DNA of 7,465 bases, from the IMG/VR virus record IMGVR_UViG_3300028976_000016, positions 1 through 7,465 of that record, one strand, 5' to 3'. The notes beneath the pieces were generated by a model. That model saw only the letters and a program-made list of their open reading frames with translations, ran no database searches and was not told where the DNA came from. Position 1 is the first letter of the stretch, and the number at the start of each line of letters is the position of its first letter. Source of the DNA: a virus (taxonomy: Duplodnaviria > Heunggongvirae > Uroviricota > Caudoviricetes). Positions 5,418-6,180 of this stretch are shown one piece after another. The translations under genes were made by a program, and so were the position numbers.

Positions 5418-5506
5418 GCAGAATATTTTGCTGAAAAATAAGGCATGGCCACGCGGGCGGATAACATGAAATCCTGCGAACTGGCGAAACGTAAGTGAAT
5501 AAAAGT

Positions 5507-5541
5507 AAAAACCCCGTTTGTTGGCACCAAGCGGGGTTTTG
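5507..5541. terminator. Bidirectional terminator-like hairpin between endolysin and spanin genes
   Basis: 9-bp stem aaaaccccg (5508-5516) / cggggtttt (5532-5540) around a 15-nt loop; the A-run before and T-run after allow termination in either direction. Confidence 0.45.
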
Positions 5542-5576
5542 TGTTTCCTGACTCCGGAAAAGTCAAAGGAGAAAGT

Positions 5577-5714
5577 GTGTTTGATTTTAGCAAACTGATT
5601 CGGGAGATTCGAGTGATGGCTGAAAAATTATCCACCTGGAAGTTCATTCTTATCTGGCTGGTGTTTGTGATTATGGCCTCCGGTTATTTCATCGGTCAGA
5701 TACGCTGGTGGTGA
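5577..5714 (+). CDS. Small single-pass membrane protein (about 45 aa), translationally coupled to Rz
   Basis: AAGGAG at 5566-5571 lies 5 nt before GTG 5577; an alternative ATG at 5616 follows GGGAG at 5602-5606. Product ...[40 protein letters not shown] has one hydrophobic helix. The TGA at 5712-5714 is 1 nt before the Rz ATG at 5716. It was missed by the ORF track because it is short. Confidence 0.35.
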
Positions 5715-5715
5715 A

Positions 5716-6180
5716 ATGAACCGCGTACTGTGCGTGGTCATCATTGCCCTGCTGGTGGCCTGTGGTGCGCTTAGTCTGGGGCTGAATCATTACCGTGATA
5801 ACGCCATTACCTACAAAGCCCAGCGCGACAAAAATGTCAGAGAACTGAAGCTGGCGAACGCGGCAATTACTGACATGCAGATGCGTCAGCGTGATGTTGC
5901 TGCGCTCGATGCAAAATACACGAAGGAGTTAGCTGATGCGAAAGCTGAAAATGATGCTCTGCGTGATGATGTTGCCGCTGGTCGTCGTCGGTTGCACATC
6001 AAAGCAGTCTGTCAGTCAGTGCGTGAAGCCACCACCGCCTCCGGCGTGGATAATGCAGCCTCCCCCCGACTGGCAGACACCGCTGAACGGGATTATTTCA
6101 CCCTCAGAGCGCGACTGATAATAATGCAAAAACAACTTGAAGGGGCACAGCTATACATTCGAGAGCAATGCCTCAGATAA
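5716..6180 (+). CDS. Rz: Rz i-spanin (inner-membrane spanin subunit), lambda-like
   Basis: N-terminal TM segment followed by [18 protein letters not shown]...[86 protein letters not shown], which is nearly identical to lambda Rz as recalled. Confidence 0.9.
5936..6118 (+). CDS. Rz1: Rz1 o-spanin (outer-membrane lipoprotein), embedded in the +1 frame of Rz
   Basis: Lipoprotein signal with lipobox (LPLVVVGC) and a proline-rich mature region ([31 protein letters not shown]), wholly nested inside Rz as in lambda. Confidence 0.9.

Follow-up and report, generated by a model that had tools for sequence, protein, structure and literature searches.

In phage P2, the lysA gene lies between the endolysin and spanin genes, and lambda S107, P1 LydB and T4 RI are other antiholins or lysis-timing proteins. 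The subject of this work is a 45-codon open reading frame (ORF) that takes up a similar position, between the endolysin gene R and the i-spanin gene Rz, in a stretch of 7,465 nucleotides (nt) of viral DNA (IMG/VR record IMGVR_UViG_3300028976_000016, positions 1 to 7,465), here called the window. The window is the late region of a lambdoid Escherichia coli prophage. In phage lambda, the sdi stem-loop at the Shine-Dalgarno (SD) sequence of S tunes translation, and the tR' terminator is passed by Q-modified RNA polymerase. Classical morons, such as those of HK97 gp15 and lambda bor and lom, are inserts between genes that lie next to each other in relatives; each has a promoter of its own and a terminator downstream. 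The HK97 moron is located among tail genes, and its product gp15 is a small exclusion protein of the inner membrane. Two membrane proteins of lysis cassettes were found more recently, the releasin of phage Mu (PMC9239132) and LysZ (doi 10.1101/2025.06.24.661397). Mu releasin, or gp25 (DUF2730), is a protein of 99 amino acids (aa) with an N-terminal transmembrane (TM) domain (N-out, C-in) and an anionic cytoplasmic domain (PMC9239132). No description of the small ORF was found in the literature on lysis-cassette membrane proteins, the spanin census, a survey of the lysis cassettes of Shiga toxin (Stx) phages, or a preprint on the Enterobacteriaceae microproteome.

The small ORF shares with P2 lysA its place between endolysin and i-spanin genes in a late operon, a membrane protein as product and a non-essential appearance. 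LysA has several TM segments, whereas the product of the small ORF has 45 aa and a single one, shows no sequence similarity to LysA and is not tied to one holin family. Like releasin, it would consist of a membrane-tethered cytoplasmic domain with almost no periplasmic part, it is encoded near endolysin and spanin genes, and in the window it adjoins an endolysin of the signal-anchor-release (SAR) type. It differs from releasin by its C-terminal TM domain, its basic helix of 20 residues and the lack of a Pfam match, and it also occurs beside soluble endolysins. As in the case of lambda S and tR', an SD helix would tune a membrane protein of the lysis cassette and a terminator would be passed only by Q-modified polymerase, both being predicted here. 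These elements are not homologous to those of lambda, however, and they form a portable unit on a micro-gene in the middle of the cassette.

A preliminary description of the window had singled out about 300 base pairs (bp) between endolysin and Rz as a non-canonical insert, holding a hairpin, an SD sequence, a GTG-initiated ORF and a stop codon 1 nt before the Rz ATG. All these parts were found at the same positions (Table 1), and the comparison with relatives agrees with an insert. The TAA stop of R occupies positions 5415-5417 and the Rz ATG begins at 5716, leaving 298 nt between them, while the homologous R and Rz genes of mEp460 overlap in ATGA without any insert, as they do in vB_EcoS-733R4.

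The small ORF is a genuine coding gene. When it was compared with homologues at 67-71% nucleotide identity, the ratio of nonsynonymous to synonymous substitution rates (dN/dS) was 0.09-0.27 (dS 1.1-2.2, dN 0.21-0.33), and codon-position entropy was highest at position 3 and lowest at position 2. The corresponding ratio of proportions of differences (pN/pS) stayed below 0.45 in all four segments of the ORF and reached 0.77 and 1.9 in the two shifted frames, so that the synonymous versus nonsynonymous pattern, whose absence from relatives had been named as an argument against the ORF, is present. Constraint is seen on codons 2-13 (pN/pS 0.42) and not on the 12 codons upstream in the same frame (0.79), and the start was therefore placed at position 5577 rather than at the ATG at 5616. 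Residues D3, S5, K6, L7, E10 and R12 are invariant among close homologues. Synonymous divergence is low over codons 2-13 (5577-5615), with a pS of 0.26 against 0.5-0.7 across the rest of the ORF, which hints at an additional constraint at the nucleotide level, such as a translation-initiation region or an RNA structure.

As for its relatives, the whole product aligns with PHROG 6632, a family without assigned function, its residues 1-45 covering all 45 positions of the profile (E=1.2e-29). An identical coding sequence is annotated in RefSeq as hypothetical protein WP_000459345.1 in some genomes, e.g. E. coli MS7163 and S88, and many annotations skip the ORF. Neither record includes the leader, the non-ATG start or the pattern of contexts described below. 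Homologues of 44-50 aa occur in Escherichia, Salmonella, Citrobacter, Edwardsiella, Yersinia and Izhakiella, and others in Sodalis, Brenneria, Symbiopectobacterium, Providencia, Trabulsiella and Pseudomonas phages. Their common motif is D-x-SKLIRELRxMxEKLPxW[KR]F, after which comes a TM helix. In 26 sequences reaching down to 31-45% identity, F23 is invariant and E10, R12 and M14 are kept in at least 90%; the protein motif persists down to about 36% identity, though the DNA is saturated. With coverage of at least 80% of a 501-nt query as the threshold, the region was counted in at least 871 of 5426 complete E. coli genomes, and it is also found in H-19B and in many Stx1a and Stx2c phages. Only 10 of 72,556 plasmid records contain a relative, and the small ORF is not a plasmid gene.

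The expected small membrane product with a charged N-terminus and a single C-terminal TM helix is borne out by hydropathy and by AlphaFold2. Its 22 N-terminal residues carry a net charge of +2 and form a strongly amphipathic helix (hydrophobic moment 0.56-0.59); they are followed by one hydrophobic stretch (residues 24-42, mean Kyte-Doolittle value 2.13), beyond which there is only IRWW. AlphaFold2 predicted a single unbroken helix from residue 4 to 44, with a mean predicted local distance difference test score (pLDDT) of 86.7. By the positive-inside rule, the product is probably a tail-anchored inner-membrane protein with N-in, C-out topology, in which the basic amphipathic helix of about 20 residues would be cytoplasmic and the four residues IRWW periplasmic. 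Neither the peptide nor the family profile matched an entry in Pfam (E<=0.1), NCBIfam, PADLOC (E<=1) or the PDB sequences. The earlier assignment to the class of small toxins, holins or lysis regulators thus agrees with the architecture and finds no support from sequence in these four databases. A role as the holin is not supported either, as the ORF matches no holin family of Pfam or NCBIfam and lies downstream of the endolysin gene, and the window has its own class II holin of the S21 type.

Upstream of the gene lies a hairpin (5508-5540) of 13 pairs, 6 of them G-C, with a 7-nt loop and an RNAfold energy of -18.9 kcal/mol. It is flanked by an A-tract upstream (5501-5511) and by UUUUGUGUUUCC downstream (U-tract 5537-5549). 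A terminator-like match of this kind is not by itself above chance in the window (1 found against 1.6 expected in shuffles), and the hairpin was judged real because it is conserved across homologues. Of 52 unique homologue leaders, 51 have a hairpin of the terminator type ahead of the ORF. RNAalifold gave 12 pairs, 8 with compensatory changes, and in a count of pairs 93.5% were paired, with double changes at 8 of 13 pairs. The bidirectional terminator-type hairpin proposed earlier is thus real and conserved; it has the conserved GC-rich stem-loop and the U-tract of an intrinsic (Rho-independent) terminator, and termination itself is predicted.

The SD sequence, formerly described as strong, is so in its letters but is predicted to be mostly base-paired. 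In the minimum free energy (MFE) fold of the window sequence, UUUCCU (5544-5549) pairs with AGGAGA (5567-5572) around an inner mini-hairpin of GACU (5550-5553) and AGUC (5561-5564). The mean unpaired probability of the SD was 0.28, compared with 0.45 for shuffled upstream sequence and 0.52 for neighbouring gene starts. In homologues the SD helix is 90.9% paired, with compensatory changes at 3 pairs, and the mini-hairpin inside it covaries (CCUUG/CAAGG, CGUUA/UAACG or CAUG/CAUG). For both helices together, in a 20-sequence alignment, 92.4% of the cells were paired and 11 pairs showed compensatory changes; the structure was taken from these same sequences, which are related to one another, and the fairer comparison is with partners slid by 1-3 columns, which gave 45-56%. 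Pairs were counted on a longer alignment (A7), as MAFFT on the short leader alone misregistered the E. coli-type and Salmonella-type helices. On A7 the E. coli-type copies score as partly broken, and their own MFE fold pairs the SD one position shifted. A third type of leader (loci L165 and L174, and vB_EcoS-569R3) has the SD in a loop and a TTG start in the stem.

The start codon is equally conserved in kind. Copies of the gene and the region upstream of it, 177 in all, were gathered from contigs of genomes and viruses and reduced to 68 unique sequences, of which 64 start with GTG, 4 with TTG and none with ATG. A scan of 5418-5576 showed no promoter-like site on the + strand, and the gap between hairpin and start is only about 35 nt. 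Three points had been overlooked in the preliminary description: the SD is sequestered, the non-ATG start is conserved, and terminator and gene form one mobile unit. Hairpin, SD helix and non-ATG start accompany the gene within Enterobacterales and as far as a Pseudomonas phage.

Several features mark the 3' part of the interval as mobile. Homology between the window and phage VT2-Sakai ends exactly where the A-tract of the hairpin begins and resumes at the Rz ATG; in between, VT2-Sakai carries as cargo an ant gene and an unrelated 48-aa TM ORF (PHROG 4906). The GC content of the insert is 0.44, against 0.53 in R and Rz. Among 40 unique collinear E. coli-type copies, diversity was 0.018 in the ORF (0.033 at third positions), compared with 0.137 and 0.133 at the third positions of R and Rz. 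In the same copies the 85-nt spacer that follows R had a diversity of 0.110, near the third-position value of R, and it looks near-neutral. This spacer (window 5418-5504) is homologous to VT2-Sakai (L185) 2701-2787 up to and including 'gtgaataaa', after which the sequences part. No reading frame or structure is conserved in the spacer, the frame having been compared with Salmonella. A 17-codon ORF with an ATG start (5446-5498) was rejected since its frame is not kept in Salmonella, and so was a small RNA or 3' untranslated element, in view of the missing conservation and the near-neutral diversity. Rfam scans of the window and of 5350-5800 placed no family in the interval, with only weak sub-threshold matches (rimP leader, E=0.076); elsewhere they gave the three tRNAs, STnc100 and AsxR.

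When present in lysis cassettes, the gene sits between the endolysin and i-spanin genes, and usually a single nt separates its stop from the spanin ATG. This gap was seen at 116 loci with R21-type lysozyme and Rz, and also at GH19/DUF2514 loci. Coupling to Rz, which the preliminary description had assumed, is permitted by the placing of the stop, as read from the spacing. Upstream partners are GH24 SAR lysozymes (139 loci), GH19, GH108 with PG_binding_3, Peptidase_M15_4 and CHAP endolysins, as well as a 138-aa candidate endolysin without Pfam assignment. Downstream partners are Rz (PF03245), DUF2514 and other N-terminally anchored i-spanin-like proteins, and the accompanying holins are of the S21 type, Phage_holin_2_3 or Phage_holin_8. 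By our own tally, the gene adjoins an endolysin gene in roughly 8 of about 19 distinct types of context, which is far above random placement in a genome of 50-60 genes, yet not exclusive.

Our preferred reading, to which we give slightly less than an even chance, is that the interval consists of an accessory cassette of about 210 bp (5505-5715), spread by horizontal transfer, and the 85-bp spacer, that it sits at the endolysin/i-spanin junction of a phage-21-type lysis cassette, and that the cassette supplies a gated modulator of lysis. Its parts would be a bidirectional terminator, a leader whose pyrimidine tract pairs with the SD, a weak GTG start and the 45-codon gene. Because there is no room for a promoter of its own, the gene would be transcribed solely by late, Q-antiterminated RNA polymerase reading through the terminator. 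Translation would then be poor, so that the product may be late, low in abundance and silent in the lysogen. The stop 1 nt from the Rz ATG would permit translational coupling, as R provides in phages without the insert. That the protein is a non-essential modulator of terminal envelope events (lysis timing or triggering) is proposed with some doubt. Such a modulator could act through its conserved juxtamembrane cytoplasmic helix on a target that we take to be generic (the membrane as such or a protein of the host), since the gene occurs irrespective of which holin, endolysin or spanin accompanies it.

A number of observations weigh against this proposal. The family co-occurs with unrelated holins, endolysins and spanins, which speaks against any specific partner, and a specific antiholin or anti-spanin was rejected on this ground. 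It also occurs outside lysis cassettes. In SEN34-like phages (13 loci) it separates the baseplate genes gpV and gpW, and elsewhere it follows a gpK-like gene (JAB + NlpC/P60), a gene resembling that of a tail fibre, or the gene of a 965-aa LPD38 protein. It is further found among ParE, RelE and HicAB modules upstream of terminase, and in a tail region of Pseudomonas phage YMC11/02/R656 that is crowded with small ORFs, most of them unannotated. A pure 'lock' role agrees poorly with a strong terminator that stands within a baseplate operon of phages in which no antitermination is known. Distant family members (L187, L190 and L191) keep the leader and start with ATG. The low diversity of the ORF could stem from recent spread rather than constraint. 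Finally, the supplements of ribosome-profiling studies of enterohaemorrhagic E. coli and the literature searched contain neither experiments on the ORF nor expression data for it.

These contexts lend themselves to another explanation, namely that the product is a generic moron-type small membrane protein with a role outside lysis (superinfection exclusion or manipulation of host membrane proteins) and that the R-Rz junction is a permissive insertion site. We regard this as unlikely but as a serious contender. Like a classical moron, the small ORF is optional, mosaic, lower in GC and found at several genomic positions, including baseplate, tail and accessory-island contexts and the neighbourhood of toxin-antitoxin genes; it encodes a small membrane protein, it separates genes that are adjacent in mEp460, and it is independent of the type of holin, endolysin and spanin. 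A related small ORF in L190 even matches PHROG 35629, annotated as 'moron... membrane protein'. Unlike a classical moron, it has its terminator upstream rather than downstream, no room for a promoter and a stop placed for coupling to Rz, and its expression is expected in the lytic cycle instead of the lysogen. Exclusion proteins normally act in the lysogen, and there a gene with an upstream terminator and no room for a promoter should be silent. The endolysin-adjacent share of its contexts, far beyond random, and the virtual lack of a periplasmic domain also argue against this explanation.

It is improbable that the insert is mainly a cis-acting element with a secondary role for the peptide sequence, in which the terminator would insulate or attenuate transcription, the ORF would pass ribosomes to Rz, and the RWW codons would provide a Chi site and an SD-like GGTGGTGA for Rz. 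Codons R43-W44-W45 do form a Chi octamer, one of 5 in the window (GCTGGTGG), all on the + strand, i.e. in the direction of late transcription, compared with 0.23 expected from shuffles; so oriented, these sites would face RecBCD entering through the downstream cos end. The terminal Arg codon is CGC or CGT in 22 of 28 unique proteins, other Arg codons of the ORF being CGA, CGG and AGG. The stop stands 1 nt before the i-spanin ATG in most lysis contexts, the junction IRWW-stop-N-ATG(Rz) recurs in a different, 28-aa ORF of vB_EcoS-569R3, and the same leader is found ahead of unrelated small ORFs. Against a mainly cis-acting role, however, purifying selection acts on the amino acids in all segments, including the N-terminal helix, and the protein motif outlasts the saturation of the DNA. 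Moreover, many family members lack RWW and Chi or a coupled downstream gene, and R and Rz of the window carry Chi sites too.

A small hydrophobic toxin, either type I toxin-antitoxin-like or an abortive-infection effector, held off by RNA structure, is highly improbable. The product resembles Hok, TisB, Ldr and Ibs in size (below 50 aa), in hydrophobicity with one TM helix, and in its occluded ribosome-binding site within a structured leader with a weak start codon, and the bidirectional terminator could end an antisense RNA. Nevertheless no antisense RNA gene was found (one homologue checked): the sole minus-strand promoter-like site (5699-5670, -10 at 5670-5675) is missing from that Salmonella homologue when inspected by eye. 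There is likewise no room for a sense promoter and no PADLOC or Pfam match, the gene is embedded co-directionally in late operons, and its charged domain is N-terminal and its TM helix C-terminal, the reverse of the order in Hok, TisB and Ldr-type toxins. As to a degenerate remnant or chance ORF without function, it is effectively refuted by the selection tests, for although the upstream spacer looks nearly neutral and many annotations pass over the ORF, dN/dS is far below 1, full-length homologues exist in many genera, and length, start type and leader are all conserved.

The small ORF is common in E. coli and Stx phages yet often unannotated, and it sits in the operon that times the burst of Stx-producing lysogens and the release of toxin and phage. 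Should it prove to modulate the timing of lysis, the scheme of holin, endolysin and spanin would gain a component. Whatever its function, its upstream terminator, sequestered SD and non-ATG start would give an example of how a phage may silence a membrane protein outside late antiterminated transcription. If it is a neutral hitch-hiker, the finding amounts to an annotation fix only.

Other tiny ORFs share the slot or the leader. In related coliphages (vB_EcoS-569R3, VT2-Sakai and E. fergusonii prophages), the slot between R and Rz is occupied by 1-4 unrelated tiny single-TM ORFs, among them ORFs of the PHROG 6632 type and the PHROG 4906 type, one of 38 aa and one of 28 aa ending in AIRWW. In vB_EcoS-569R3 (L194, 534-1177), four small TM ORFs lie between R and Rz, the last of which encodes 28 aa (MSAELIRAMAFAIRIVAIAVLVWAIRWW) and ends RWW-TGA-N-ATG(Rz). 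E. fergusonii prophages have a second small TM ORF just upstream, with a like leader, the ending WVKWW and a core (MSEKGA) that matches PHROG 12997. When the family profile was compared by hhalign with the 48-aa ORF of VT2-Sakai and with 'ORF-A' of E. fergusonii, the similarity was not meaningful (probabilities 0.6% and 9.8%), and the PHROG 6632 and PHROG 12997 families show no detectable homology. With a covariance model built on the leader (R1), more copies were detected in L187 and L190 ahead of other small ORFs; several of these ORFs have the ending AIRWW.

ORFs of the PHROG 12997 type often stand in tandem with a PHROG 6632 gene, and those of L007 and L187 have the same leader of terminator and SD helix and an [RK]WW ending. 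The tandems suggest cassette-like arrays. In L187, a unit of about 330 nt occurs in three copies (2590-3000, 3290-3705 and about 4820-5230), one ahead of each leader. By eye it comprises a good sigma-70-like promoter (TTTACA, 17 nt, TATCAT) and a first terminator-like hairpin, with the hairpin of the leader coming next. The unit looks like a late-promoter/terminator region that has been duplicated, and its last copy stands at the head of the terminase operon.

We further advance, as a speculation that is rather unlikely to hold in full, that the ORF belongs to an undescribed class of portable 'terminator-locked' micro-cistrons of temperate phages. These would consist of a terminator, an SD-occluding helix and a gene for a tiny tail-anchored protein, and would include at least two families (PHROG 6632 and PHROG 12997), both often ending in RWW, which corresponds to Chi in E. 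coli-type copies. They would occur singly or in tandem, prefer the slot between endolysin and i-spanin, and be expressed only under late antitermination. If so, they would represent an unrecognised accessory layer of lysis control in phages that infect Gram-negative hosts, including Stx-converting phages and E. coli prophages with the cassette.

Table 1. Features of the window and of loci compared with it
Feature	Position	Strand	Remark
Q antiterminator	307-693	+	
Cargo-like gene, 214 aa	742-1386	+	between Q and tRNAs; weak WYL-domain match
Chi sites (GCTGGTGG)	1574-1581, 1890-1897, 5302-5309, 5704-5711, 5751-5758	+	
Cargo-like gene, 235-aa AraC-family regulator	1997-2704	+	between Q and tRNAs
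Three tRNAs	2733-2979	+	
STnc100 (Rfam match)	3058-3266	+	131.7 bits; downstream of the three tRNA genes
AsxR, anti-small-RNA (Rfam match)	3269-3321	-	63 bits, exactly its gathering threshold
S21-type class II holin	about 3970-4190	+	Ns inside the gene
DUF1327 gene	4195-4539	+	
90-aa ORF	4505-4777	-	between DUF1327 gene and R, overlapping the DUF1327 end; PHROG 2411 full length, E=5.5e-55
R, R21-type SAR lysozyme (GH24 endolysin)	4883-5417	+	upstream neighbour of the small ORF
Non-coding spacer after R stop	5418-5504	+	common to phages with different cargo at the junction
Terminator-type hairpin, bidirectional	5508-5540	+	5' edge of the mobile cassette
SD-occluding helix	5544-5572	+	
SD sequence AAGGAG	5566-5571	+	
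Small ORF, 45 codons	5577-5714	+	GTG at 5577; TGA 5712-5714, then one A, then Rz ATG
Chi octamer (GCTGGTGG) in the small ORF	5704-5711	+	one of the five sites above; made by codons R43-W44-W45
Rz i-spanin (PF03245)	5716-6180	+	ATG 1 nt past the TGA of the small ORF
Rz1 o-spanin	5936-6118	+	embedded within Rz
DUF1398 gene	6488-6913	-	
YnfO-like gene	6956-7189	-	
Slot ORFs of other loci	L194 534-1177; L185 (VT2-Sakai) 3537-3686; L174 2638-2769		
PHROG 12997-type ORFs of other loci	L007 3681-3907; L187 3626-3879, 5152-5384; L190 3150-3360; L023 3171-3287		M[NS]xxDAGIV..RLANAALILA..

With regard to the neighbouring genes (Table 1), a run of N at about 4060-4075 splits the holin gene and appears as XXXX in the translated ORFs 3865-4092 and 3998-4138; it is an assembly gap and not biology. 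The endolysin gene is frameshifted in the window, where it is read as two ORFs (4883-5125 and 4932-5417). It measures 535 nt, compared with 534 nt for the intact gene of the E. coli MS7163 locus (L001), and the extra base lies in a G-run near 5040-5046. Either the prophage is decaying and the gene is a pseudogene, or the frameshift is a sequencing error in the homopolymer. The family of the 90-aa minus-strand ORF, PHROG 2411, is of unknown function, and this ORF is missing from the otherwise similar MS7163 locus. The STnc100 and AsxR matches occupy the place where Stx phages carry stx.

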